Notes: generated from the letters alone by a model not told the origin. A stretch of DNA of 64,000 bases from an uncultured Bacteroidales bacterium (GCA_964531985.1 CAZHFC010000007.1:21194-85193); one strand, 5' to 3'. Positions 48,593 to 64,000 are shown, numbered from the stretch's first letter. Numbers and translations: made by a program.

Positions 48593-51500
48593 ATGGAGGG
48601 AAGCAAGAAATCACCAAAAGACCTGCAAAAACTTGAATTCGAAGTACGTGAGCGGCTGAAGGAACTGGCTGCCATCAACCAGACCACGCAAATTCTTCGC
48701 GAAGGAAAAAGCATCGAGGAAACCCTGCACCGCCTGGTCGATATCCTGCCCCCGGCCTGGCAATACCCCGATTATACGGTTGCCAGGATAAAATTTGGCG
48801 AAATGGAGTTTGCAAGCCATGATTTTATGCCCAGCAGCTGGATGCAGAAGCAAAGTTTTGAGACCATCGATGGTTTGCAGGGCTGCGTGGAAGTATTTTA
48901 CCTGAGGGAATTTCCCGAACTTGACGAGGGGCCCTTCCTGAGAGAGGAACGTCACCTGATCGATAACATCGCCGGCCTGATCGAAGGCTACCTGAACAGT
49001 GTAAAGGGAAAAACACTTTTGCGAAGGGAAAGGCCGCTCATCACAGGGGTGGATGCGGGGGCGGAAAAAGAGAAGGAAGCGGGCCACAGCCGGCAATTGC
49101 TGCAGAAATTCCTGAACAAAAGCAATTACGACCGCGACATATACCACGATCTGATGCCATTCAAGGTTAAGGAGATCCTGCTTGTGGCCAACCTCTATGA
49201 TGCATACAGTATAGAAAAAGAGGGTCGCTTTTCGGAACATGTGCTGGGCGAATATCATCAGTTGAACCTTACCTCCATCCCCCGTATTACGGGAGTTTCA
49301 AACGAAAAGGAAGCCATGGCGCAATTGCACAGCAAGCATTTCGACCTGGTCATCCTGATGATGGGGGCCGATAAAAAATCACCCATCGGGCTGAGCTGCA
49401 TGATCAAGAACGAATTCCCTTATATTCCGGTTTTTCTGCTGCTGAACAACAACAGCGATATGGAATATGTGGCAGGGCACAAGGCTTCGGTAAAGCACAT
49501 CGACAAGGTTTTCGTATGGAATGGGGAATCACAGGTGTTCTTTGCCATGATCAAGCATGTGGAAGACATGATCAACGCCGAGAACGACACGCGTGTTGGC
49601 ATGGTCAGGGTGATATTGCTGGTGGAGGACTCGCCCCAGTATTATTCGCGCTACCTGCCCATGCTCTATAATACCGTTCTTGAACAAACCAAAAGGATCA
49701 TCGACGATGTGAGCACCGACGACCTGTACAAGGTGCTGAAACTTCGTGCCAGGCCCAAGATACTCCTGGCTTCCGACTTTGAGCAGGCTACCGGCATCAT
49801 CGATAAGTACGGCGAATATCTGCTGTGCCTCATCACCGATGTGAAATTTAAAAAAGAAGGCAAGGATGACGAAGAAGCAGGCTTTGAACTGGTAAAGTAT
49901 GCCCGGCAACAGATCAGGGACCTCCCCATCATCATACAGTCATCAGACGAAAATAACGCCTCAAAGGCCTATAAGTACAAATCCACTTTCATCAACAAGA
50001 ATTCTGAAAGCCTCTCTCAGGATTTCAGGAGCTTCATCACGCACTATCTCGGGTTTGGCAATTTCATCTATCGCGACGAAAAGGGGAAGATCATCAGTGT
50101 GGCCCGCTCGCTCAAGGAATTTGAGAAACAGCTCAAGACCATTCCCGATGAATCGCTCATGCACCATGCCCGCAAAGACCATTTTTCGCTATGGCTCATG
50201 GCCAGGGGCGAAATTCAGGCTGCCAAGATCCTGAACCCCTACAAGGTGACCGACTTCGAAAGTCCCGGCAGGGTCAGGGAATATTTGCTCGATATCATTT
50301 CCAAATTCAGGAATGAACAGGAAAAAGGAAAGATCATTCCATTCGAGAAGGCCGCCATTGCCGACGAATCGAATATCGTTTCCCTTTCGGAAGGCAGCCT
50401 GGGAGGCAAGGGGAGGGGCGTTGCGTTTATCAATACGCTCATCTACAATTACGAATTCAGCCAGTATATCCCGAATATCCATGTAAAATCGCCCAAGACA
50501 CTGCTCATCGGCACCGAAGAGTTCGAATATTTTATCAGGCGTAACAACCTGCTCGACCTGGTGCTGAACGAAAAAGACTACCTGAAGATCAGGAAGGCCT
50601 TTCTTCAGGCCACGCTCACGGGCACCCTCATCAAACGGTTGAAAATGGTGCTGGATGAAATAAAAAAGCCCATCGCCATCAGGTCTTCCGGCCTGTTCGA
50701 AGACTCGCTGATCCAGCCCTTTGCCGGAATTTTCGAAACTTACCTGCTTCCCAACAACCATCCCGACCCCAAAGTGCGGCTCGAACAGGCCATGGATGCC
50801 ATCAAGCTGGTATATGCCAGCGTATATTCGTCAACGGCGCGCGGGTATGTGGAAGCCATCAACTATAAGCTTGAAGAGGAAAAGATGGCCGTGGTTATCC
50901 AGGAGGTGGTAGGCAACCAATACGGCCGTTACTTTTACCCGCACATCAGCGGGGTGGCCCAATCATATAATTATTATCCTGTTTCGCATATGAAGCCTGA
51001 AGAAGGCTTCGTGGTGGCCGCCGTGGGTTTGGGAAAATATGTGGTGGAAGGGGAAAAAGCCTACCGTTTTTCGCCCAGATACCCCGAAATTGAGATCAAC
51101 AGCGCCAGGGACCAGTACAGGAACTCGCAGGTCAAATTTTTTGCCGTCGACCTCGAAAAGAAAGAACCCAACCTGCTGGAGGGTGACACGGCCGGCCTTG
51201 CCCGCCTCGACATCGATGATGCAGAAATGCACGGAACGCTCAATCACTGCGCTTCGGTATACAATCCCGATAACGACCAGATCATTCCCGGCCTGACACA
51301 TGCCGGGCCCCGTATCGTTAATTTCGCCAACATCCTTAAGTATAACTATATCCCCCTGGCCCAGACCATCGAAGTGGTCCTCGACGTGGTGAAGGAAGCC
51401 CTTGGCTCGCCTGTGGAAGTTGAGTTTGCCGTTGACCTGAACAAGGACCGCAACGGCATGGCATCCTTCTACCTGCTGCAGATCAAGCCTCTCATCGGCA

Positions 51501-52051
51501 ATGCCTCGGACTATACCATCGACCTGGCGAAGATCAAAAAGGAAAGCATTTTATTGTTTTCGGAAAAAGGCATGGGCAACGGAATCATCGAGAATATCAG
51601 TGATGTGGTTTATGTCGACCCGAAAACCTTTGATAAGGCCGAAACGGAAACCATCGCCGCAGAGATCAACCGGATCAACACAAAAATGGTGTCGGAAAAG
51701 CGCAAATATGTCCTGATCGGACCCGGCCGCTGGGGAACCCGCGACCGCTGGATCGGCATACCCGTGACCTGGCCGCAGATCTCGAACGCCGGTGTCATCA
51801 TCGAAACCAGCCTGGAAGACTATCCGCTTGATGCTTCTTCCGGATCGCACTTCTTCCACAATGTCACATCCATGAATGTCGGCTATTTCTCGGTGCAACC
51901 CGAAATGTCGGAAAGCTACATCCGCTACGACATGCTGGAGGCCGGCAAGCTGGTCGAAAAAACCGCCTTTGTCAGACATGTCAGGTTCAAAAAACCCCTG
52001 AAGGTACGCATGGACGGCAAGAAACGGATCTCGCTCATCACCCTTGAATAG
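48593..52051 (+). CDS. Multidomain regulator-like protein: N-terminal sensor-like domain, two CheY-like (receiver/pseudo-receiver) segments, and a PEP/pyruvate-binding PPDK_N (ATP-grasp) domain
   Basis: VRVILLVEDSP...CLITDVKF...IIIQSSD is receiver-like. SLGGKGRGVAFIN and IAIRSSGLFEDSLIQPFAGIFETY resemble PpsA/PPDK N-terminal nucleotide-binding motifs. I found no TSHAA-type phosphohistidine motif. Confidence 0.65.
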   Translation: MEGSKKSPKDLQKLEFEVRERLKELAAINQTTQILREGKSIEETLHRLVDILPPAWQYPDYTVARIKFGEMEFASHDFMPSSWMQKQSFETIDGLQGCVEVFYLREFPELDEGPFLREERHLIDNIAGLIEGYLNSVKGKTLLRRERPLITGVDAGAEKEKEAGHSRQLLQKFLNKSNYDRDIYHDLMPFKVKEILLVANLYDAYSIEKEGRFSEHVLGEYHQLNLTSIPRITGVSNEKEAMAQLHSKHFDLVILMMGADKKSPIGLSCMIKNEFPYIPVFLLLNNNSDMEYVAGHKASVKHIDKVFVWNGESQVFFAMIKHVEDMINAENDTRVGMVRVILLVEDSPQYYSRYLPMLYNTVLEQTKRIIDDVSTDDLYKVLKLRARPKILLASDFEQATGIIDKYGEYLLCLITDVKFKKEGKDDEEAGFELVKYARQQIRDLPIIIQSSDENNASKAYKYKSTFINKNSESLSQDFRSFITHYLGFGNFIYRDEKGKIISVARSLKEFEKQLKTIPDESLMHHARKDHFSLWLMARGEIQAAKILNPYKVTDFESPGRVREYLLDIISKFRNEQEKGKIIPFEKAAIADESNIVSLSEGSLGGKGRGVAFINTLIYNYEFSQYIPNIHVKSPKTLLIGTEEFEYFIRRNNLLDLVLNEKDYLKIRKAFLQATLTGTLIKRLKMVLDEIKKPIAIRSSGLFEDSLIQPFAGIFETYLLPNNHPDPKVRLEQAMDAIKLVYASVYSSTARGYVEAINYKLEEEKMAVVIQEVVGNQYGRYFYPHISGVAQSYNYYPVSHMKPEEGFVVAAVGLGKYVVEGEKAYRFSPRYPEIEINSARDQYRNSQVKFFAVDLEKKEPNLLEGDTAGLARLDIDDAEMHGTLNHCASVYNPDNDQIIPGLTHAGPRIVNFANILKYNYIPLAQTIEVVLDVVKEALGSPVEVEFAVDLNKDRNGMASFYLLQIKPLIGNASDYTIDLAKIKKESILLFSEKGMGNGIIENISDVVYVDPKTFDKAETETIAAEINRINTKMVSEKRKYVLIGPGRWGTRDRWIGIPVTWPQISNAGVIIETSLEDYPLDASSGSHFFHNVTSMNVGYFSVQPEMSESYIRYDMLEAGKLVEKTAFVRHVRFKKPLKVRMDGKKRISLITLE

Positions 52052-52100: not shown

Positions 52101-52667
52101 ATGAAGCATGCAATGATAATATCTTTTATCAGGCCGCTGGCAGTCGTTGGCCTGCTTTTGCTGTTGTTTTCCTGCCGGGATGGCAGGGAGCCTGCACAAA
52201 AAAATGCCCGGGCTCTACCGCTGAAAGTGGCCGAAGCGGATGGCATCAGCGTGCCGGTTTATGATTTTGCCTCCATCAGCCCCCTTTTCGATGAACAGGG
52301 CGATACACTCTTCATTTTTAATTTCTGGGCTACCTGGTGCAAACCCTGTGTAAAGGAATTGCCTTATTTTGAGCGGGCAGCCAAACATTTTTACGGGGAA
52401 CCCGTGAAGATTACCCTGGTCAGCCTCGACTTTTCGGAGAACATTGAAGAGGTGCTGATCCCTTTCATGCTTGCAAATGGGCTGAAACTGGAAGTGGTCA
52501 ACCTTGACGACCCCGACGCCAATGCCTGGATACCCAAAGTCAGCAGTGAGTGGGATGGTGCCATCCCCGCAACCCTTTTCATGCGAAAGGGTGAAAAGAC
52601 CTTCTTTGCGCATGCCTTCACCTATGAGGAACTGATTGATGAAATTGAAAAACAACTTAAACGATAA
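52101..52667 (+). CDS. TlpA-like thiol:disulfide oxidoreductase lipoprotein (thioredoxin fold)
   Basis: Lipobox MKHAMIISFIRPLAVVGLLLLLFSC. Active site FNFWATWCKPCVKELP (WCxxC). Confidence 0.75.
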   Translation: MKHAMIISFIRPLAVVGLLLLLFSCRDGREPAQKNARALPLKVAEADGISVPVYDFASISPLFDEQGDTLFIFNFWATWCKPCVKELPYFERAAKHFYGEPVKITLVSLDFSENIEEVLIPFMLANGLKLEVVNLDDPDANAWIPKVSSEWDGAIPATLFMRKGEKTFFAHAFTYEELIDEIEKQLKR

Positions 52668-52671
52668 AACA

Positions 52672-53274
52672 ATGAAAAAAACAAGTCTGACCATCATCGC
52701 GCTGCTTATGTCAGTGGCATATGTTATTGCCGGCGGATACCGGCCGGGCGACAAAGCCGCCGGCTTTTCGCTGAAAAACGTGGACGGAACCATGGTTTCC
52801 ATGTCCGATTATGAAGATGTCAAAGGATTTATCCTGATATTTACCTGCAATCACTGCCCCTATTCGGTAAAATATGAAGACCGAATCATCGCCCTCGACA
52901 AAAAATACAAGGAACAGGGTTACCCGGTAATTGCCATTAACCCGAACGATCCGGCCAAACAGCCCGAGGACAGCTTTCCGCTGATGCAGGAGCGGGCACG
53001 CAACAAGGGTTTTACTTTTCCTTACCTCTTTGATGAAAGCCAGGAAACAGCGCGTACATACGGTGCAACACGCACGCCCCATGTATTTCTTCTGCAAAAG
53101 GATGAAGGTGATCTACTGGTAAAATACATCGGTGCCATCGACAACAATGTGAAAAGCGAGCAGCTTGCCGATATAAAATATGTTGAAGATGCCATTGCTG
53201 CCCTGGCTGAGGGCAGGGATCCCGATCCCGCCTTTACGACTGCAGTTGGCTGCACCATCAAGTGGAAGGATTAA
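52672..53274 (+). CDS. Thioredoxin-fold redoxin (AhpC/TSA-like) protein, secreted
   Basis: Signal MKKTSLTIIALLMSVAYVIA. FTCNHCPYS CxxC-type site. ARTYGATRTPHVFLL is typical of this redoxin family. Confidence 0.75.
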   Translation: MKKTSLTIIALLMSVAYVIAGGYRPGDKAAGFSLKNVDGTMVSMSDYEDVKGFILIFTCNHCPYSVKYEDRIIALDKKYKEQGYPVIAINPNDPAKQPEDSFPLMQERARNKGFTFPYLFDESQETARTYGATRTPHVFLLQKDEGDLLVKYIGAIDNNVKSEQLADIKYVEDAIAALAEGRDPDPAFTTAVGCTIKWKD

Positions 53275-53871: not shown

Positions 53872-54387
53872 ATGTCAGGAAATATGAAAGCATTGAAAGA
53901 AGAATTCCTTGAAATACTTGCAAATTATCAAGGAATACTGCACAAAGTCAGCCTGGTTTACTTTAAAAATAAAATTGACCGGGAAGATAATATTCAGGAA
54001 ATCATATATCAGCTCTGGAAGTCGTACCCAACACTTAAAAACCGTAACAGCATTGGTTCATGGATTTATGCAGTATCAATAAATACATCTTTATCAAGGA
54101 TCAAAAAAGAGTTGCGGGTAGAATACAGGGAGGCAATACCCGAATTATCTGATAAATCAGATTTTATTGAGAATCTATCAATGAATGAATCATTAAACCT
54201 GCTTTTGAATGCAATATATCATCTTGATGAGCTTGACAAATCAATCATGCTGCTTTATCTGGAAGAAAAAAGCTATGATGAAATTGCCGGGATTATTGGT
54301 ATATCAAAGTCGAATGTGGGTGTTAGAATCAATCGGGCAAAAGAAACGTTAAAACATACCTTTAAAGTACAAAGCCATGGAAAATAA
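53872..54387 (+). CDS. ECF-subfamily RNA polymerase sigma-70 factor
   Basis: Region 2 EDNIQEIIYQLWKSY...WIYAVSIN. Region 4 SYDEIAGIIGISKSNVGVRINRAKETLK. 171 aa, in an AT-rich context. Confidence 0.85.
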   Translation: MSGNMKALKEEFLEILANYQGILHKVSLVYFKNKIDREDNIQEIIYQLWKSYPTLKNRNSIGSWIYAVSINTSLSRIKKELRVEYREAIPELSDKSDFIENLSMNESLNLLLNAIYHLDELDKSIMLLYLEEKSYDEIAGIIGISKSNVGVRINRAKETLKHTFKVQSHGK

Positions 54388-55006
54388 TGAATTACAATTA
54401 ATATGGAGAACCGTGAACGCCGATATTAAACAAAAATCCAGGGATGAACTAAACCTGTTGTTGACATCAAAGGCCAGGCAGGTATTTGCCGAATTTTTGA
54501 TCTTTAATATTACTGCTATTCCGGTTTGTATAGGGTTAATGGTTTGGCTGATCATTTCTACGGCAAATAGTATAGACGATAAACTATATGTTGCAAACAA
54601 TGTCTTGCTGGGGTCAATCGGGTTATTCACCTTATTTCACGTAATCCGGGGATGGCATCGGTATAAACGGAGCAAAATGGACAAACCAGTCAAAGAGTGG
54701 CTGGGAATAGAAATCGACCTGTTGTCTAAATGGATAATTGGTAAATACAAAAGAATTGACCTTTATCTAATCCCCATATTATTTATCCTTTCTTTTCTAT
54801 CAATTCACGTATACCATTCAGACCTTTATTTAATTGAAGTGTTTCGCTCGGATAAATTCATAAGTGAAGATATGTGGGGGTTAATAATTTTCACACCGAT
54901 AATCTTTGCTGCTTCTTTTTATGGTTTGATAAAACTCCGCAAGTATCAGGTGAAAAAACTGCAATTTCTCAAAGATCTGTATGGTCGCATTTGTCAGGTA
55001 TGCTAA
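54377..55006 (+). CDS. Membrane protein, probable cognate anti-sigma/partner of the ECF sigma
   Basis: Overlaps the sigma gene by 11 nt. Four hydrophobic helices. No recognisable anti-sigma zinc motif, so the role is inferred from position only. Confidence 0.45.
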   Translation: MENNELQLIWRTVNADIKQKSRDELNLLLTSKARQVFAEFLIFNITAIPVCIGLMVWLIISTANSIDDKLYVANNVLLGSIGLFTLFHVIRGWHRYKRSKMDKPVKEWLGIEIDLLSKWIIGKYKRIDLYLIPILFILSFLSIHVYHSDLYLIEVFRSDKFISEDMWGLIIFTPIIFAASFYGLIKLRKYQVKKLQFLKDLYGRICQVC

Positions 55007-57153: not shown

Positions 57154-58218
57154 TTACTTTTCATATTCATTTAATTTTTCCATCAGATTATATTTAGCCT
57201 GTCTCGTTTTCCACCTTTCCCGTGCAAATTTCTGCATATCTGTTATTGTATCTTTTTCGTCAACGATTTCAAGTCCCAGCAGCGTTTCAATGATATCCTC
57301 CATTGTTACGATCCCGTCTACTCCTCCGTATTCGTCAACGATCAGTGCTATATGCTCCTTTTTTTCCAGCAGCTTTTCCCATAAAGAGAACAATACCATC
57401 GTTTCGGGAACAACGATGATCTCGCGTTTTATTTCCTTTAGTTTCAGTTTTTGGTTGTTTTCAGCTAATTTTTCAAATACCTGCTGCCTGAAGACGTATC
57501 CGGTAATGTTTTCATTGTTCCCCGAGTATACAGGTATTCTTGAAAATTTCAGGTATTCCTTGTTTTTCAGAAAGTCTTCCAGGGGCAGATTCTCATCAGC
57601 AACTGCAACAACAACTCTTGGCGTCATTATCTCGGTTACTTTAACATTTTTCAGTCGTAGTATATTTTGAATTATTTTGTTTTCCTTCTCCGAGAACAAA
57701 CCTTCATCCGACCCGATGCTTGCCAAAGCTGCAATCTCTTCTCTGCTGGTAGTTTGTTCGTTTGTTCGTTTCGAAAAAACCCGTGTAATCACAGACGACA
57801 TCACAACCAAAGGATAGGTGAAAAAGATCATAAATTTGATTGTAAAAAACGAGGTCCTTGTTAAGCTTTTCCAATATCTGGCCCCAATCGTTTTCGGAAT
57901 TATTTCAGTAAATACTAAAATCAGAATTGTAAGTATGGCAGAGACTATCCCGAAATATACTTCGCCAAACACCTTTACAGCCTGGGCTCCAACACCGGCA
58001 GCTCCAATCGTATGAGCAACGGTGTTTAAAGATAATATTGCAGATAAAGGTTTATCTATATTGATTTTTAAATTTAAAAATGACTCTGCCCATTTATGCC
58101 CCTTGTTTTGCTTTACAATCAGAAATGACTGAGGGGTGGAAAGAAGCACGGATTCCATTATTGAACAAAGAAATGAAACGAATAGGGCAAGGAATAAATA
58201 TGCAATCAGGGTTACCAT
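57154..58218 (-). CDS. CNNM/DUF21 transmembrane domain plus CBS-pair protein (CorB/hemolysin-family divalent-cation transport protein)
   Basis: N-terminal DUF21-type helices (MVTLIAYLFLALFVSFLCSIMESVLLS). CBS-pair region (VTEIMTPRVVVAV...IALIVDEYGGVDGIVTMEDIIE). No CorC_HlyC C-terminal domain is evident. Confidence 0.8.
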   Translation of the reverse strand: MVTLIAYLFLALFVSFLCSIMESVLLSTPQSFLIVKQNKGHKWAESFLNLKINIDKPLSAILSLNTVAHTIGAAGVGAQAVKVFGEVYFGIVSAILTILILVFTEIIPKTIGARYWKSLTRTSFFTIKFMIFFTYPLVVMSSVITRVFSKRTNEQTTSREEIAALASIGSDEGLFSEKENKIIQNILRLKNVKVTEIMTPRVVVAVADENLPLEDFLKNKEYLKFSRIPVYSGNNENITGYVFRQQVFEKLAENNQKLKLKEIKREIIVVPETMVLFSLWEKLLEKKEHIALIVDEYGGVDGIVTMEDIIETLLGLEIVDEKDTITDMQKFARERWKTRQAKYNLMEKLNEYEK

Positions 58219-58964
58219 TTTTCTTTCAAATATACAATTTTGTTTATTGTTTTGTTTATTTCGTGCAGTTTTTGGGGTAGTGTTACATTCGGTTTGTTTG
58301 CGGGGAGTCTTGCCCGTTGAGCGAAGCGAAGAAGAAACCTGCTGTATTCGTGGCCTGTAAGTTTACCCCGGGAAGAGCCGAAGGGCAGAGTGGTTTACCT
58401 TCATTCCATTCCGGTGGATAAATGTGAGAGGCGCACTCCGGGCGGTTTTTACTGACGAAGCCGCTTACCCGATCATAAGGGCGTAGGCCCGGGTGCTGCG
58501 GTCCAGGTATTGGCGCAGAATTTGACATCGGCTCAAAATGGGCAAAATGCCGTGTCAGCCCACGCACAAATGCCAATAAACAACCCCCGGTCATCCCGAC
58601 CCCGGGTAACCGGGGGAGGGAGCCCCCGGTCGTTCGGATTTAAACCATCAGATTCCACCCGCCGGCCTTCCTTCGGTTCGGATTCATTGCCGGCTTATGC
58701 TGATCCCCTATTCTGTTAATACCAAAAGGCGTGAAAAGCCGCCCCCGCCATGATGTTTTTCCGGTCCTTTCAGTTTGCCCGGCACGGCGGAAACATAAAC
58801 CCCTGTTCAGGTTACTTCTGTTGCATTCACCATCAAACATCCCCTGTATCTGGTAATCCGGCCATGGCTCCCACCTGCACCGATGCTGTGTTTCCGGCGC
58901 CGGAGGCGATAATTTAGACCTCATATAAATTATGGCCATCGCAAAGGGGGCACAAATCATTTGC

Positions 58965-58972
58965 TAAATTTG
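58965..58972 (+). promoter_or_regulatory. Candidate -7 promoter box (TAAATTTG) for the NuoE/NuoF-like operon
   Basis: Exact TAnnTTTG, 23 nt upstream of the ATG at 58996. Confidence 0.35.
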
Positions 58973-58995
58973 TCATCGCCTAAAACCATTGTAAT

Positions 58996-59514
58996 ATGCG
59001 GATTCAAAGAATTGAGGTAAAACACGAAACAACAGCGCAGGAAGCCGTTGATATCGAACTGCTCAACCCGCTGATCGGGAAATATAAAAACCGCAAGGGA
59101 AACCTTATCCCCCTGCTGCAGGGTACACAGGATATCTACGGTTTTATCCCGCGGGTGGCATTCGAAAAGATCGCCGCCGAAACAGGCTTGTCGCTCAGCA
59201 ATATGTATGGCGTAGCCACTTTCTATGCGCAGTTCCGGCTCAGCCCGGTGGGCCGTCATATCATCAAGGTGTGCCACGGTACCGCCTGCCATGTGCAGAA
59301 TGCCAAGTCGATCACCACGGCTCTCAGGGAATCGCTCAAGGTGGAAGACGGGGGCACCACCGACGACGGCCTCTTCACGCTCGAATCGGTTGCATGCCTC
59401 GGCTGTTGCTCGCTGGCACCGGTCATGATGATCGGCGACGAAACCTATGGCAAGCTCACGGGTGCCCAGGCCATCAGGATCGTGAAGAACATCCGCATCG
59501 CAGAAAACAATTGA
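58996..59514 (+). CDS. NuoE/HndA-like thioredoxin-fold [2Fe-2S] subunit of an NAD(P)H-linked oxidoreductase
   Basis: VATFYAQFRLSPVGRHIIKVCHGTACH and CLGCCSLAPVMMI cysteine motifs of the NuoE family. Confidence 0.85.
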   Translation: MRIQRIEVKHETTAQEAVDIELLNPLIGKYKNRKGNLIPLLQGTQDIYGFIPRVAFEKIAAETGLSLSNMYGVATFYAQFRLSPVGRHIIKVCHGTACHVQNAKSITTALRESLKVEDGGTTDDGLFTLESVACLGCCSLAPVMMIGDETYGKLTGAQAIRIVKNIRIAENN

Positions 59515-59542
59515 TCATCGAACCACCCTTTGAATTGAAAAT

Positions 59543-61318
59543 ATGGAAACAAAAGTTATTGTAGGACTGGGAAGTTGCGGCATCGCCGCCGGCGCCGGGA
59601 AAGTCTATGAGAAGATCAGGGCCGTAAAAAATGCGGAAAACCTCAGCTTCGAACTCAAAAAGACATCCTGCGTGGGCATGTGCTACCGCGAACCCCTCGT
59701 TGAGATCATCGACGAAAGCGGAAAGTATCTCTACGGCGACATCGACGAGGAAAAGATACTGGAAGTGCTCGAAAAACATATCAACCAGCATAACCCGGTT
59801 AAGGAATATATCGTACAGTCGGATCTTTTCGAAACAACCGACAATGAGTTTACCGAAAACCAGGTAAAGATCGCCCTGCGCAACTGCGGACATATCGATC
59901 CCGAAAATATTGACGAGTACGAAGCCGGCAAAGGTTACGAGGCCCTGCGCATGATCGCCGCTAAGGGCATCTCACGGGAGGAGATCATCCAAACGGTCAT
60001 CGATTCCGGCCTCAGGGGCAGGGGCGGCGGCGGATTTCCCACCGGCCTGAAGTGGAAGTTTGCCAATAACAACAAGTCTGACGAAAAATACATCATTTGT
60101 AATGCCGACGAAGGTGACCCCGGCGCTTTCATGGACCGCTCGGTGCTCGAAGGCGACCCCCATTCGGTGCTTGAAGGGATGATCATCGGCGCCTATGCCA
60201 TTGAAGCCTGCCAGGGCGTGATCTATTGCAGGGCCGAATACCCGCTGGCCATCAAACGCCTGCAGATCGCCATCGAACAGGCCCGTGCCAAAGGATACCT
60301 TGGCAAAGAAATACTCGGGATACCGGGTTTTGATTTCGACATCTACATCAAGGAAGGAGCCGGCGCCTTTGTATGCGGAGAAGAGACAGCCCTGATCGCC
60401 TCGGTGGAAGGACAAAGGGGCATGCCGCGCAAACGCCCGCCATTTCCCGCTGCCTCCGGCCTGTGGAAAAAACCCACAAATATCAACAATGTTGAAACTT
60501 TTGCCAATATCCCCTGGATCGTGATGAACGGGGCCGCAGCCTACGCAAAATACGGTACCGAAAAAAGCAAAGGCACCAAGGTGTTCGCACTGGCCGGCAA
60601 GATCCGGCGCTCGGGACTGGTAGAGGTGCCCATGGGCATCAGCATCAGGGATGTGATCTTTAAACTGGGAGGAGGCATAAAGGACGACAAGGAATTCAAG
60701 GCGGTGCAGATGGGAGGCCCCTCTGGCGGATGCATCCCCGCCTACCTCTCCGATACCATCGTCGACTATGACTCGGTGAACGCCACGGGAGCCATTATGG
60801 GCTCGGGCGGTATGGTGGTGATGGACGAAACAACCTGCATGATCGATGTGGCAAAGTTCTTCCTCGACTTTACACAGAAGGAATCATGCGGAAAATGTAC
60901 CTTCTGCCGCATCGGCACCAAAAGGATGCTCGAGATCCTTACCCGCATCACCGAAGGAAAAGGCGAAGAAGCGGACATTGAAAGGCTTGAGGAACTGGCA
61001 TACCAGATCAAGGATAACTCGCTGTGCGGGCTCGGACAAACAGCCCCCAACCCGGTTCTTACCACCATCAAGTATTTCAGGGATGAATACGAAGCCCATA
61101 TCCGCGACAAGAAATGCCCTGCCAAGGTGTGCGTGAACCTGCTTACCTACGAGGTGGACGAGGAAAAATGTACGGGTTGTACGGTCTGTGCAAAAAACTG
61201 TCCCGTTGATGCCATCAGCGGCGAACGGAAGGAAATACACCACATAAACCAGGAAGTCTGTATCAAATGCGGGGTTTGCTTTACCAAATGCAAATTCGAA
61301 GCCATTAAATTATCTTAA
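59543..61318 (+). CDS. NuoF/HndC/HydB-like flavoprotein subunit (N-terminal 2Fe-2S domain, FMN/NADH site, 4Fe-4S, C-terminal 2x[4Fe-4S] ferredoxin)
   Basis: GLRGRGGGGFPTGLKWKF (FMN site), ESCGKCTFCRIG (N3 cluster), CTGCTVCAKNCP and CIKCGVCFTKC ferredoxin motifs. Confidence 0.85.
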   Translation: METKVIVGLGSCGIAAGAGKVYEKIRAVKNAENLSFELKKTSCVGMCYREPLVEIIDESGKYLYGDIDEEKILEVLEKHINQHNPVKEYIVQSDLFETTDNEFTENQVKIALRNCGHIDPENIDEYEAGKGYEALRMIAAKGISREEIIQTVIDSGLRGRGGGGFPTGLKWKFANNNKSDEKYIICNADEGDPGAFMDRSVLEGDPHSVLEGMIIGAYAIEACQGVIYCRAEYPLAIKRLQIAIEQARAKGYLGKEILGIPGFDFDIYIKEGAGAFVCGEETALIASVEGQRGMPRKRPPFPAASGLWKKPTNINNVETFANIPWIVMNGAAAYAKYGTEKSKGTKVFALAGKIRRSGLVEVPMGISIRDVIFKLGGGIKDDKEFKAVQMGGPSGGCIPAYLSDTIVDYDSVNATGAIMGSGGMVVMDETTCMIDVAKFFLDFTQKESCGKCTFCRIGTKRMLEILTRITEGKGEEADIERLEELAYQIKDNSLCGLGQTAPNPVLTTIKYFRDEYEAHIRDKKCPAKVCVNLLTYEVDEEKCTGCTVCAKNCPVDAISGERKEIHHINQEVCIKCGVCFTKCKFEAIKLS

Positions 61319-61338
61319 TCATAATCAAAAGACCTTTC

Positions 61339-64000
61339 ATGATGAGTGAAAAGCTGAATGTGATCCTGAATGGGAATATCGTTTCCGGAAATAGCGGGGA
61401 ATCCATCCTGCAACTGGCACAGCGGCACGGGATACAGATCCCCACCCTGTGCAACGATCCGCGCCTTGAACCCTACAGTTCGTGCTACGTTTGCGTAGTG
61501 GAAGTGGAAGGGCTGCGTGGATTGCAGCCTTCCTGTTCCACCAGGATCACGGAGGGTATGCGCATAAAAACCGACAACGACAAGATCGCAAAAGCCAGGA
61601 AAACGGCCCTGGAGCTGATCCTTGGCAACCACTATGCCGACTGTACCGGCCCCTGCAAACAGACGTGTCCTGCCGGCGTGGATGTACAGGGCTATATTTC
61701 CCACATTGAGAAAAGGCAATACCATGAGGCCGTTGCGCTGATCAAGGAAACAAACCCCCTGCCGGCCATCTGCGGCCGCGTATGTGTGCGCCCCTGCGAG
61801 GTAGCCTGCCGGCGAAACCTGCTCGACGAAGGCGCCCCGGTGGGCATCGACTATCTGAAAAGGTTTGCCAGCGATATCGATCTGGCTTCGGCCAATAAAT
61901 ACAGACCTGCCGTTAAGCCCGAAACCGGAAAAAAGGTGGCCGTGATCGGGGCGGGACCCGGAGGCCTCTCGGCAGCCTTCTTCATGCGAAAGGAAGGACA
62001 TGCCGTCGACATCTACGAAGCCGCCCCCAAAGCCGGTGGCTGGCTCAGATACGGGATCCCCGAATACCGCCTGCCCAACGACATCCTGCAGAAAGAGGTG
62101 GATAACATCTCCGAAATGGGCGTGCGGATATTCTATAATAAACGGCTCGGCGAAGAGATCAGCTTTGCCGGTATCAAGGATGCCTACGATGCAGTGATCC
62201 TGGCAATAGGTTCGCAGAAAGGTACCGGCATCGGCTGCGAAGGCGATGATGCCATCAATGTGTTCTCGGGCATCGACTTCCTCAAAGAGATGGAGATGAC
62301 AGGAAAAAAATACGATTTCTCGGGAAAAACGGTGGCCGTGGTCGGAGGCGGAAATACAGCCATGGACTGCTGCCGCACATCCATGCGCTGCGGCGCCGAA
62401 AAGGTGTATGTGATCTACCGGCGTACCGAAAAGGAGATGCCGGCCAACCCCATCGAAATACATGAATCGAAACTCGAAGGCATCGAATACCTCTTCCTCA
62501 CCAACCCGGTGAAGATCAGCAAGGATGATGAAGGAAAGGTGAAGTCGGTCACCTGCCTGAAGATGGAACTGGGCGAGCCGGATGCTTCCGGAAGGCGGCG
62601 CCCGGTGCCCGTGGCGGGATCGGAATTCGACATCGAGGTTGACTATATGCTGGCAGCCATCGGCCAGAAGACCGATGTGCATTTCCTCGATGATGTAAAT
62701 AAGTTTTCCATTAACGGAGAGCTGAAGGTGAACCGCTGGGGCGACATCGACGCGGACCCGGCCACGCTGCAAACCGGCATCGGAAACGTTTTTGCCGCCG
62801 GCGACGGGGTTACGGGCCCGGCAACGCTCATACAGGCCATCGCACAGGCAAAAGTGGCCGCGCATAGCTGTGATCAATTCCTCCGCGGTGAAGAAGTGAA
62901 ACCCCTGCCCGAAGAGTTCCTCAGTAAAAAAGACAACTTCAGGGAACAGGAACCCGCCGCCTATAAAGGACGCTACGCCGGACAGCAGCGGGAAGAAATG
63001 CCAACCCTCGACCCAGCCGACAGAAAGAATTTCAGGGAGGTGGAACTGGGATACGCCGGTGAGGAAGTGGCCCTGCATGAGTCGCAGCGCTGCATGGAAT
63101 GCGGATGTACGGCCCTCTATACCTGCGACCTGAAAAAATATGCCACTGAATACCAGGCACGCCAGGATGGTTTCCCGGGCAGCTTCAATGAATACGAGGT
63201 CGATTTCAGGCACCCCTATGTTGAGATCGACAACAACAAGTGTGTGCTCTGTTCCCGTTGTGTCAGGATATGCTCCGAGCTGGTGGGCGCCAACGCCCTC
63301 GGGCTCGTCAACCGCGGGTTCGACACCTATGTGGCCCCCAGCATGGGGAATTCCCTGCAGCAAACCTATTGCGAGAGCTGCGGCATGTGTATCTCGACAT
63401 GCCCCACCGGCGCGCTCACCGAAAATGTTCCCTTCAAGCCGGGACCCGTCAAACTCGAAAAGGTCCATACCATCTGCAATTATTGTTCTATCGGCTGTGA
63501 AACGGTACTGGGCCACAACAGGCAATTCTTTATGGAGGCGGAAGGAAGCATGGGCGGAGATAAACCCGGAAACCTTTGTAAATACGGTAAATTCGGGTAC
63601 CGATACCTGAATGGCCCCGGCCGGATCACCAAACCCATGCGCAGGCTGAACGGGAAATTTGAGGAGATCGGCCTTGAAGAGGCCCTCGCCACCATCGCCG
63701 GAAAGATCAAAGAGGCCGGTTCGGGCGAAAATGCCTTCTTTGCCGGGGCCCGGATGAGCAATGAGGAGCTTTACCTGCTGCAGAAACTGGCCCGGGCCGG
63801 CGCAGGAACCAACAACGTGGGCAGCTTCCACTACCTGGGAAGAGAAAAGGCCTGTGAGAACAATGTTATCGCCAACGTGCCATTCGAACAACTGAAAGAG
63901 GCCGGGAAAATATACCTCTTAGGCGCCGAACTGAGCCGCGACAACGGCGTGGCGGGATTCATGGTGAACGAGGCAAGGGTGAAAAACAAGGTGCCGGTCG
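61339..64000 (+). CDS. Fusion oxidoreductase, 3' end cut by window edge: NuoG-type [2Fe-2S] domain, GltD/NfnB-like FAD-NAD(P)H module, 4Fe-4S domains and a molybdopterin-oxidoreductase (formate dehydrogenase alpha-like) domain
   Basis: Not in the supplied ORF track because it has no stop in the window. My translation from ATG 61339 in frame 1 reads MMSEKLNVILNG...CNDPRLEPYSSCYVCVVEVEG, CTGPCKQTCPAG, KVAVIGAGPGGLSAAFF, VVGGGNTAMDCCRT, NNKCVLCSRCVRIC, CESCGMCISTCPTGA, HTICNYCSIGCETVL. The frame was still open at every point I checked up to nt 63999. Confidence 0.8.
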   Translation, partial: MMSEKLNVILNGNIVSGNSGESILQLAQRHGIQIPTLCNDPRLEPYSSCYVCVVEVEGLRGLQPSCSTRITEGMRIKTDNDKIAKARKTALELILGNHYADCTGPCKQTCPAGVDVQGYISHIEKRQYHEAVALIKETNPLPAICGRVCVRPCEVACRRNLLDEGAPVGIDYLKRFASDIDLASANKYRPAVKPETGKKVAVIGAGPGGLSAAFFMRKEGHAVDIYEAAPKAGGWLRYGIPEYRLPNDILQKEVDNISEMGVRIFYNKRLGEEISFAGIKDAYDAVILAIGSQKGTGIGCEGDDAINVFSGIDFLKEMEMTGKKYDFSGKTVAVVGGGNTAMDCCRTSMRCGAEKVYVIYRRTEKEMPANPIEIHESKLEGIEYLFLTNPVKISKDDEGKVKSVTCLKMELGEPDASGRRRPVPVAGSEFDIEVDYMLAAIGQKTDVHFLDDVNKFSINGELKVNRWGDIDADPATLQTGIGNVFAAGDGVTGPATLIQAIAQAKVAAHSCDQFLRGEEVKPLPEEFLSKKDNFREQEPAAYKGRYAGQQREEMPTLDPADRKNFREVELGYAGEEVALHESQRCMECGCTALYTCDLKKYATEYQARQDGFPGSFNEYEVDFRHPYVEIDNNKCVLCSRCVRICSELVGANALGLVNRGFDTYVAPSMGNSLQQTYCESCGMCISTCPTGALTENVPFKPGPVKLEKVHTICNYCSIGCETVLGHNRQFFMEAEGSMGGDKPGNLCKYGKFGYRYLNGPGRITKPMRRLNGKFEEIGLEEALATIAGKIKEAGSGENAFFAGARMSNEELYLLQKLARAGAGTNNVGSFHYLGREKACENNVIANVPFEQLKEAGKIYLLGAELSRDNGVAGFMVNEARVKNKVPV

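Follow-up and report, generated by a model that had tools for sequence, protein, structure and literature searches.

A probable Bacteroidales orthologue of the StnABC/NfnABC transhydrogenase, with a vestigial formate-dehydrogenase-like domain

What does an enzyme do whose large subunit joins a [2Fe-2S] domain, a GltD-type flavin module and a molybdopterin-oxidoreductase-type region in one polypeptide, encoded directly behind a NuoE/NuoF-like pair? We examined such a locus in a 64,000-nucleotide window (the whole stretch of DNA analysed) from an uncultured Bacteroidales bacterium. A reading made from the sequence alone (the sequence-only reading) had called this combination unusual and had proposed that two pyridine-nucleotide sites feed a formate-dehydrogenase-like or SfrA-like catalytic subunit. 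The three genes are co-directional and adjacent, in the order NuoE-like, NuoF-like, GltD/NuoG-fusion large subunit. By homology they are very probably the Bacteroidales orthologue of StnABC/NfnABC (Nfn-Bfu), a soluble flavin/iron-sulfur electron-bifurcating transhydrogenase. The features are as follows, with residue numbers in the last eight lines referring to the product of gene 3.

58996..59514, + strand: gene 1, NuoE-like, probable nfnC/stnA (BfuC); 172 amino acids (ORF listing and translation)
59543..61318, + strand: gene 2, NuoF-like, probable nfnB/stnB (BfuB); 591 amino acids (ORF listing and translation)
61339..64000, + strand: gene 3, probable nfnA/stnC (BfuA); first 887 of 1234 codons, continuing past the window end
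61348..61578, + strand: [2Fe-2S] domain, cluster A1; residues 4-80, PF13510 (Fer2_4), E 2e-15
61630..61671, + strand: first junction motif, HxxxCxxxCxxxCP; His98-Pro111, the point of entry of the GltD module into the His-ligated cluster motif of NuoG type
61642..62850, + strand: GltD/NfnL-type module; residues 102-504, PF14691 and PF07992, PRK12814 E 5e-196
63091..63126, + strand: second junction motif, CxxCxCx5C; Cys585-Cys596, where NuoG-like sequence resumes
63214..63420, + strand: 2x[4Fe-4S] ferredoxin-like domain; residues 626-694, PF22117 (Fer4_Nqo3), E 5e-11
63457..63612, + strand: molybdopterin-oxidoreductase-type Fe4S4 domain; residues 707-758, PF04879 (Molybdop_Fe4S4)
63622..64000, + strand: start of the vestigial Fdh/NuoG-like domain, which spans residues 762 to 1234; partial PF00384, profile 1-121 of 353
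63838..63843, + strand: Gly834-Arg835, the lost active site; aligned to SeCys140 and His141 of FdhH

Is the large subunit really one polypeptide? Gene 3 begins with an ATG at 61339 and runs for 887 codons without a stop up to the window end (ORF listing and translation). Its remainder is supplied by a metagenome contig (k141_211628, ENA ERZ27252280) that matches window positions 58996-64000 with 100% identity over 5005 nt; the complete gene (k141_211628:11797-15501) is one unbroken reading frame for 1234 amino acids. A frameshift or assembly artefact can be ruled out because this contig is identical and because many homologues of approximately 1230 amino acids come from independent assemblies. 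The fusion described by the sequence-only reading therefore stands, and the four motifs it quoted are all present in the translation: CTGPCKQTCPAG (residues 102-113), VIGAGPGGL (202-210), GGGNTAMDC (336-344) and HTICNYCSIGCETVL (709-723). An 858 amino acid antisense ORF within gene 3 (61315-63891, minus strand) matches nothing in Pfam and is taken as spurious. Consensus scans of the operon found promoter-like and terminator-like sites at the level of shuffled sequence (9 versus 5.9 and 13 versus 11.1, respectively), and an Rfam scan of 58000-64000 (E <= 0.1) found no regulatory RNA. AhpC/TSA and thioredoxin-like genes lie approximately 6 kb upstream of the operon. No fdhD, moa or sel gene occurs within 10 kb of it.

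The same arrangement is found in related genomes. Among the best 120 clusters at 90% identity, which are 70-93% identical to the query, nearly all members agree in length (approximately 1230 amino acids) and in domain set; some of the few shorter ones are annotated as partial. The fused gene is kept in all 24 related genome loci found (24/24), and wherever the contig of these Bacteroidales species loci includes the upstream sequence, the NuoE-NuoF-fusion order is kept too. The scan of genome contigs used peptide patterns from the query itself, and for that reason it returned only Bacteroidales/Bacteroidota relatives and has no bearing on the distribution elsewhere; for the distribution outside Bacteroidota we rely on Table 1 of PMC7483475 and on PMC9304861. 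Schut et al. (2022) had already placed Nfn-type BfuB sequences in Bacteroidetes.

The Pfam scan bears out the domain order given earlier for the gene 3 product: [2Fe-2S] domain, GltD-type FAD/NADPH module, 2x[4Fe-4S] domain, Fe4S4 domain and Fdh/NuoG-like domain. The GltD module (Fer4_20 at 102-182, Pyr_redox_2 at 198-504) is inserted into a NuoG-type subunit, since the PF10588 match breaks off at residue 103 (profile position 17 of 40) and the match to the NuoG model TIGR01973 picks up again at residue 595. Both junction motifs, HxxxCxxxCxxxCP and CxxCxC...C, have been described in StnC (PMC7483475). The module has an FAD site (GAGPGG, 204-209) and an NADPH site (GGGNTA, 336-341, of the form GxGxxA, with YRR at 360-362), and it carries clusters A6 and A7. 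The downstream 2x[4Fe-4S] domain has two sets of cysteines (Cys635, 638, 641, 645 and Cys678, 681, 684, 688).

The two smaller subunits have the features of a bifurcating flavin module. The product of gene 1 (PF01257, E 2e-48) is a NuoE-like thioredoxin-fold subunit in which the four ligands of [2Fe-2S] cluster C1 are present (Cys93, Cys98, Cys134, Cys138). The product of gene 2 (PF01512, PF10589 and two Fer4 matches at the C-terminus) has an FMN site (GRGGGGFP, 159-166), an NADH site (GAGAFVCGEE, 272-281) and the cysteines of the [4Fe-4S] cluster B1 (Cys449, 452, 455, 495). As is typical of Bfu enzymes, it is extended at both ends, by a thioredoxin-like domain at the N-terminus and a 2x[4Fe-4S] domain at the C-terminus (clusters B3/B4, Cys543-553 and 573-583). 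Its linker HIRDKKCPAKVC is identical in StnB and NfnB; a B2 Zn site of three Cys and one His is a family trait of Nfn-type B subunits, and the B5 site in their N-terminal domain may carry Zn or [2Fe-2S]. The earlier assignment of the NuoEF pair to the bifurcating HydBC type is upheld, as is the presence of two pyridine-nucleotide sites in the predicted complex. Stn/Nfn structures outscore HydB hydrogenase subunits for gene 2 (863 versus 755 bits).

For all three proteins the best PDB matches are the three solved Nfn-Bfu/Stn complexes (8OH5, 9BOV, 9N5U): 9BOV_C (5e-54), 9N5U_C and 8OH5_A for gene 1; 8OH5_B (7e-259), 9BOV_B and 9N5U_B for gene 2; and 9BOV_A (2e-234), 8OH5_C (2e-222) and 9N5U_A (2e-185) for gene 3. 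Gene 2 is 66% identical to StnB and 64% to NfnB of Caldicellulosiruptor saccharolyticus (Csac), and gene 3 is 44% identical to StnC over residues 5-821; Kremp et al. accepted Stn homologues at 33-51% identity. Solved structures at 44-66% identity are already available. StnC itself is laid out as a [2Fe-2S] part (1-101), a GltD part (102-565) and an FdhF-like part (683-1172), and the gene 3 product agrees with it in both the order and the limits of its domains. StnABC/NfnABC enzymes have been purified, assayed and solved in three cryo-EM structures (PMC7483475, PMC10482914, PMC11829005, PMC12018979). Because the architecture is published for StnC/NfnA, this is an already characterised kind of enzyme: the three-gene architecture is real, yet already known and ordinary, and the earlier description of it as unusual does not hold. 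The sequence-only reading had itself named an enzyme of this kind as grounds for its refutation.

Individual residues follow the same pattern, and those of tested function are retained at cluster A7, at Arg244, in the NADPH motif, at the FMN/NADH site and at clusters B1, B3, B4 and C1. The A7 ligands of Csac NfnA (Cys108, Cys147, Cys151, Lys170; PMC11829005) align to Cys110, Cys149, Cys153 and Lys174 of the gene 3 product, and Arg239 at the FAD site of StnC to Arg244. Mutational data are available for StnC residues (PMC10482914). One of the positions mutated in S. ovata, Cys114 of StnC, which adjoins cluster A7, is Val116 here. This position does not define the family: the active archaeal NfnA (9N5U) likewise has Val there, and the Stn paper describes the residue as variable, not strictly conserved. 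An additional cysteine, Cys145, occupies a canonical GltD position and has no counterpart in the three solved enzymes; the ligation of A6/A7 could therefore differ.

Is the molybdopterin-type region catalytic? We aligned the C-terminal 540 residues of the gene 3 product and nine Bacteroidales homologues to E. coli FdhH using MAFFT. The Fe4S4 cysteines (Cys713, 716, 720, 747) align to Cys8, 11, 15 and 42 of FdhH. The active-site residues SeCys140, His141 and Arg333 are replaced by Gly834, Arg835 and Lys, and none of the ten Bacteroidales sequences has a Cys in the Mo-ligand column. Residues approximately 565-715 of FdhH are without counterpart in the alignment, and PF01568 (Molydop_binding, FdhH domain IV) was found neither in the gene 3 product nor in the precomputed domains of its homologues. 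The Fdh-like domain is vestigial, its Mo site lost as in StnC/NfnA. The homologous StnC domain is catalytically inactive and S. ovata Stn does not oxidize formate; Csac NfnA has an incomplete pterin site and shows no pterin density.

The most likely function, by analogy with the characterised enzymes, is NADPH + NAD+ + ferredoxin electron bifurcation/confurcation. Following the solved and assayed Stn/Nfn enzymes, NADPH would donate a hydride to the FAD of the large subunit's GltD-type module, from which electrons would pass singly via A7, A6, A3, A2 and A1 to the FMN/[4Fe-4S] B1/[2Fe-2S] C1 site of the NuoF-like and NuoE-like subunits. The flow would be split there, one path reducing NAD+ at FMN and the other leading through C1 and then B3/B4 at the NuoF-like C-terminus to ferredoxin; in reverse, NADH and reduced ferredoxin would yield NADPH. 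The Fdh-like C-terminal domain would be a non-catalytic scaffold without cofactor, holding a dead-end cluster branch. Enzymes of this family form a tetramer of heterotrimers and oxidize NADPH in a manner that depends on both NAD+ and ferredoxin (bifurcation), and we infer a similar activity, bifurcating nature and oligomeric state here.

A different role is hinted at by the neighbouring gene. A 152 amino acid ferritin-like protein (PF02915, rubrerythrin family), in which both E...EExxH halves are conserved, is encoded by a gene that starts 84 nt beyond the gene 3 stop codon, and a consensus scan found no + strand terminator-like site between the two genes. The complex, bifurcating or not, might then be mainly an NAD(P)H oxidoreductase (with or without ferredoxin) that feeds this protein for peroxide or O2 reduction, a hybrid of Nfn-Bfu and the predicted "Rub-Bfu" type. 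The gene lies directly downstream in 13 of the 21 related Bacteroidales loci with enough sequence, and is missing in the other eight; the linkage may be mere inheritance within one order. AhpC/TSA and thioredoxin-like genes also lie upstream, BfuBC-rubrerythrin complexes were predicted by Schut et al., and NCBIfam PRK12775, a GltD-ferritin domain fusion, gives a weak full-length match (E 0.002). The archaeal homologue Nso of T. litoralis used NADPH to reduce O2 and S0 and was originally reported as an NADPH sulfur/oxygen reductase. However, the characterised Stn/Nfn operons lack such a partner and still encode transhydrogenases, and the ferritin-like protein has no rubredoxin domain and is a putative peroxidase at most. 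We consider this reading unlikely. It is nonetheless tempting to speculate, at similarly long odds, that the vestigial Fdh-like domain could serve as a docking site for the ferritin-like protein, which would draw electrons from the "dead-end" A2-A4-A5 branch, so that the complex would also act as an NAD(P)H/ferredoxin-driven peroxide/O2 reductase. If true, this would give a function to a cluster branch regarded in the cryo-EM papers as an evolutionary remnant. The linkage is the only mildly new point of the locus; it may point to a further, or another, electron acceptor.

That the enzyme is an NAD(P)H-linked formate dehydrogenase or an SfrAB-like metal/substrate reductase, with two nucleotide sites feeding a catalytic Mo/W-bisPGD domain, as the sequence-only reading held, is very improbable. 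Gene 3 does match Molybdop_Fe4S4 and Molybdopterin in Pfam, FDH alpha subunits are among its PDB matches (e.g., 6TG9_A at 3e-83), and several database sources call its homologues "formate dehydrogenase major subunit." The catalytic reading is rejected because neither the active-site residues nor domain IV are present; the inactive StnC counterpart, the Csac structure and the lack of fdhD, moa and sel genes nearby also stand against it. SfrA (Fdh-like) and SfrB (GltD-like) of the soluble Geobacter NADPH oxidoreductase, moreover, are separate proteins without NuoEF partners, whereas here one fusion accompanies NuoE/NuoF-like genes. The top NCBIfam names ("putative NADPH-dependent glutamate synthase small subunit" (PRK12814), NuoE, NuoF) would point to a small subunit related to glutamate synthase, or to a NuoEFG input module as in respiratory complex I. 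This is scarcely credible, with the GltD models and the NuoF and NuoG equivalogs all below their curated cut-offs (653 versus 916 and 494 versus 559 bits; NuoE NF005722 is the exception), no gltB within 10 kb, no nuoA-N neighbours and a NuoF-like subunit with the additional Bfu-type domains.

Returning to the transhydrogenase, the significance lies in little beyond the annotation. In databases, these proteins from Bacteroidales go under the names "formate dehydrogenase major subunit" or "FAD-dependent oxidoreductase"; the correct annotation would be large subunit of a Stn/NfnABC-type transhydrogenase. Bfu-type bifurcation is therefore the probable means by which these anaerobes keep their pools of NADPH, NADH and ferredoxin in balance, with no formate oxidation by this enzyme. 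The linkage to a ferritin-like diiron gene offers a small lead for research on Bfu enzymes and on the oxidative-stress defence of anaerobes.

How does the locus compare with known systems? A stand-alone GltD has approximately 470 amino acids and a GltB partner, while the module here is fused. Respiratory complex I differs in its nuoA-N operon, in a NuoF without the extra ferredoxin domain and in a NuoG without a GltD insertion. The Mo/W formate dehydrogenases (E. coli FdhH, 1AA6; R. capsulatus FdsABG, 6TG9, whose FdsBG is also NuoFE-like) share the Fe4S4 cysteines and the general fold in the first part of the molybdopterin domain; the protein here has other residues in place of the active-site Sec/Cys, His and Arg, lacks the last pterin-binding domain and carries an inserted GltD module. 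NfnAB/NfnSL (4YLF, 5JCA) has a homologous GltD-type FAD/NADPH module (E 1e-93 to T. maritima NfnB) and presumably the same net reaction. In NfnAB the FAD of this module is the bifurcating site and the partner is the FNR-like NfnA, whereas here a NuoEF/HydBC-type module takes the partner's place and the FAD, by analogy with StnC, is expected to be non-bifurcating. NfnABC of C. saccharolyticus (9BOV/9BP5; PMC11829005) gives the best PDB match overall for both the large and the small subunit. It and the archaeal enzyme (9N5U, PMC12018979) ligate A7 with three Cys and a Lys, as here; the components of the B1-FMN-C1 "flavobicluster" are present, and the pterin site of the Fdh-like domain is likewise incomplete. 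The source here is presumably mesophilic. StnABC of Sporomusa ovata (8OH5/8OH9; PMC7483475, PMC10482914) has the same gene order and large-subunit domain order, and shares the junction Cys motifs, the lysine and arginine at positions 174 and 244, the NADPH motif and the inactive Fdh-like domain as well as, in the B subunit, the FMN/NADH site and the C-terminal 2x[4Fe-4S] domain. Its host is an acetogenic Firmicute rather than an uncultured Bacteroidales bacterium, and its large subunit has 1172 amino acids versus 1234. Unlike StnABC, the operon described here has no adjoining Wood-Ljungdahl genes and is followed by the ferritin-like gene.

Three tightly spaced genes, all on the + strand in the ORF listing of the window, encode the proteins considered here. 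Their positions and Pfam domains are as follows.

58996-59514, + strand: gene 1 (nfnC/stnA), NuoE-like subunit, 172 amino acids, thioredoxin-like [2Fe-2S] NuoE fold
59543-61318, + strand: gene 2 (nfnB/stnB), NuoF-like subunit, 591 amino acids, Nuo51 FMN domain, NuoF 4Fe-4S domain and C-terminal 2x[4Fe-4S] ferredoxin domain
61339 (ATG) to the window end, + strand: gene 3 (nfnA/stnC), fused large subunit, ORF open through 887 codons
gene 3 residues 4-80, + strand: Fer2_4
gene 3 residues 102-182, + strand: DPD/GltD 4Fe-4S domain
gene 3 residues 198-504, + strand: Pyr_redox_2
gene 3 residues 626-694, + strand: Fer4_Nqo3
gene 3 residues 707-758, + strand: Molybdop_Fe4S4
gene 3 from residue 762, + strand: Molybdopterin domain, of which only the beginning lies in the window

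Because the match of gene 3 to the NuoG His-cluster domain (PF10588) breaks off at residue 103 (position 17 of the 40 in the profile), and the NuoG model TIGR01973 picks up again at residue 595, the GltD module sits inside a NuoG-type subunit. The sequence-only reading had described exactly this insertion, and all the motifs that it quoted are found in the translation of gene 3 where it had placed them. An 858 amino acid ORF runs antisense to gene 3 (61315-63891, - strand); it has no Pfam match, and the codon composition of gene 3 itself (56% GC, compared to 50% for the window) most likely explains it.

An exact-sequence look-up with the NuoF-like protein returned 19 contigs. One of them, L001 (ENA contig ERZ27252280 k141_211628), is 100% identical to the window over 58996-64000 and supplies the downstream sequence that the first reading had lacked, completing gene 3 at 1234 amino acids. 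Nearly all of the best-scoring 120 clusters (90% identity, independent assemblies) are approximately 1230 amino acids long with the same domain list; a small number fall short of this length, among them some labelled partial. The fused gene is kept in every species-level genome locus found (24/24). Together, these loci and the full-length homologues from independent assemblies rule out an artefactual fusion.

For all three proteins the top solved-structure matches are 9BOV (C. saccharolyticus [Csac] NfnABC), 8OH5 (S. ovata StnABC) and 9N5U (archaeal NfnABC), with E-values for the large subunit of 2e-234, 2e-222 and 2e-185, respectively; with their best structures, the NuoF-like subunit reaches 7e-259 and the NuoE-like subunit 5e-54. 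The NuoF-like subunit scores 863 bits against the Stn/Nfn structures but 755 bits against HydB of bifurcating hydrogenases. The assignment of the NuoEF pair to the bifurcating type was right. The NuoF-like subunit shares 66% identity with StnB and 64% with Csac NfnB, and the large subunit shares 44% with StnC (residues 5-821); Kremp et al. list Stn homologues at 33-51% identity (PMC7483475). StnC has 1172 amino acids, comprising a [2Fe-2S] domain (1-101), a GltD fold (102-565) and an FdhF-like part (683-1172) (PMC10482914), and the architecture of StnC/NfnA in the literature is the same as that of the gene 3 product. Nfn-type BfuB sequences have been noted previously in Bacteroidetes (PMC9304861). 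The three-gene system is a member of the known, structurally solved Stn/NfnABC family. The architecture, at first taken to be unusual, is thus that of “a common, already characterised enzyme.”

Is the C-terminal part of gene 3 a formate dehydrogenase-like or SfrA-like catalytic subunit, as had been suggested? An alignment with E. coli FdhH covered this part of the gene 3 product and of nine Bacteroidales homologues. All four Fe4S4 cysteines of FdhH are conserved. However, SeCys140, His141 and Arg333 of FdhH are replaced by Gly834, Arg835 and a lysine in gene 3, none of the nine homologues has a cysteine at the Mo ligand column, and no counterpart of FdhH domain IV (about residues 565-715, PF01568) appears in the alignment. 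The Gly834 codon (63838-63840) lies within the window and is visible without the downstream sequence. Within 10 kb of the operon there are no fdhD, moa or sel genes. Because the active-site residues are replaced, domain IV is gone and these genes are absent nearby, the Fdh-like domain is predicted to be a cluster-carrying scaffold with no Mo/W active site, and the proposal of a catalytic subunit is not borne out. The FdhF-like part of StnC likewise “is catalytically inactive” (PMC10482914); in Csac NfnA the pterin site is incomplete, without pterin density, and clusters A2-A4-A5 form a dead-end branch (PMC11829005).

By homology, NADPH would reduce the FAD in the GltD module, and single electrons would reach the “flavobicluster” (B1-FMN-C1) of the NuoF-like and NuoE-like subunits by way of A7, A6, A3, A2 and A1, in that order (A, B and C denoting the Fe-S clusters of the large, NuoF-like and NuoE-like subunits). 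There the bifurcation would split them between NAD+, reduced at the FMN, and ferredoxin, reached via C1 and B3/B4; the reverse direction would yield NADPH. Every part and ligand of this mechanism is present in the window genes. The two predicted pyridine-nucleotide sites are indeed found: gene 3 has the NADPH motif GGGNTA together with YRR, and the NuoF-like subunit carries the FMN and NADH motifs as well as the B1 cysteines. We consider it very probable that the complex is a bifurcating transhydrogenase of this kind, for which we infer the activity, in vivo direction and tetrameric state.

Just beyond the window, 84 nt past the gene 3 stop, begins a further gene.

L001:15585-16043, + strand: ferritin-like/rubrerythrin-family diiron protein, 152 amino acids (PF02915, E 8e-15)

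The gene caller's version has 181 amino acids, from an upstream ATG overlapping the gene 3 stop; homologues favour the 152 amino acid start. The protein keeps both E...EExxH halves and has no rubredoxin domain; along its entire length it weakly matches the ferritin domain in PRK12775, a family of GltD-ferritin fusions. Many of its 151 amino acid homologues bear the name “ferritin family protein” or “rubrerythrin.” Of the 21 related Bacteroidales loci that extend 700 bp or more beyond the large-subunit gene, 13 have the ferritin-like gene directly 3' of it. A consensus scan of the operon found no + strand terminator-like site between gene 3 and the ferritin-like gene. BfuBC-rubrerythrin complexes have been predicted by Schut et al. 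(PMC9304861). These observations hint at an additional tie to peroxide or oxygen detoxification through this gene, which we consider improbable.

Next downstream is a PPDK_N-domain gene (PEP-utilising enzyme family; 987 amino acids, L001:16186-19149, + strand), and several related loci share this order of the two genes. A paralogue with about 42% identity over the C-terminal part (1152 amino acids, 48593-52051, + strand) lies about 7 kb upstream of the operon. In the region 4-7 kb upstream come first two AhpC/TSA-thioredoxin-like genes by Pfam label (52113-53274 and 53893-55006, + strand; coordinates transferred from L001, which was compared with the window over 58996-64000 only) and then an ECF-type sigma factor gene with an unannotated gene beside it; this neighbourhood is a possible oxidative-stress context. 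The non-coding gap of about 780 bp (58219-58995) between a divergent CNNM/CBS gene and the operon has no Rfam match at E <= 0.1. Within it, TAAATTTG (58966-58973, 23 nt 5' of the start codon) is a candidate -7 element that fits TAnnTTTG, the -7 promoter consensus of Bacteroidetes.

Most residues known from the solved complexes are conserved. The linker HIRDKKCPAKVC of the NuoF-like subunit is identical in StnB and NfnB, two CxxCxxCxxxC motifs stand at its C-terminus, and the NuoE-like subunit has all four [2Fe-2S] cysteines. Gene 3 has the junction motifs HxxxCxxxCxxxCP (98-111) and CxxCxCx5C (585-596). The A7 ligands of Csac NfnA, Cys108, Cys147, Cys151 and Lys170 (PMC11829005), align with Cys110, Cys149, Cys153 and Lys174, and Arg244 aligns with StnC Arg239, whose mutation lowers activity (PMC10482914). 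Two positions deviate. Cys114 of StnC and Csac NfnA is replaced by Val116 (61684-61686) in gene 3, and the active archaeal NfnA (9N5U) also has Val; the Stn authors describe this position as variable (PMC10482914). Conversely, gene 3 keeps Cys145 (61771-61773; ICGRVC), the canonical GltD cysteine and fourth of CxxxCxxxCxxxC, a residue absent from S. ovata StnC, Csac NfnA and archaeal NfnA. Since Cys145 is kept and Val116 replaces Cys114, the ligation or tuning of the A6/A7 clusters may be slightly different in this clade from that in the solved complexes.
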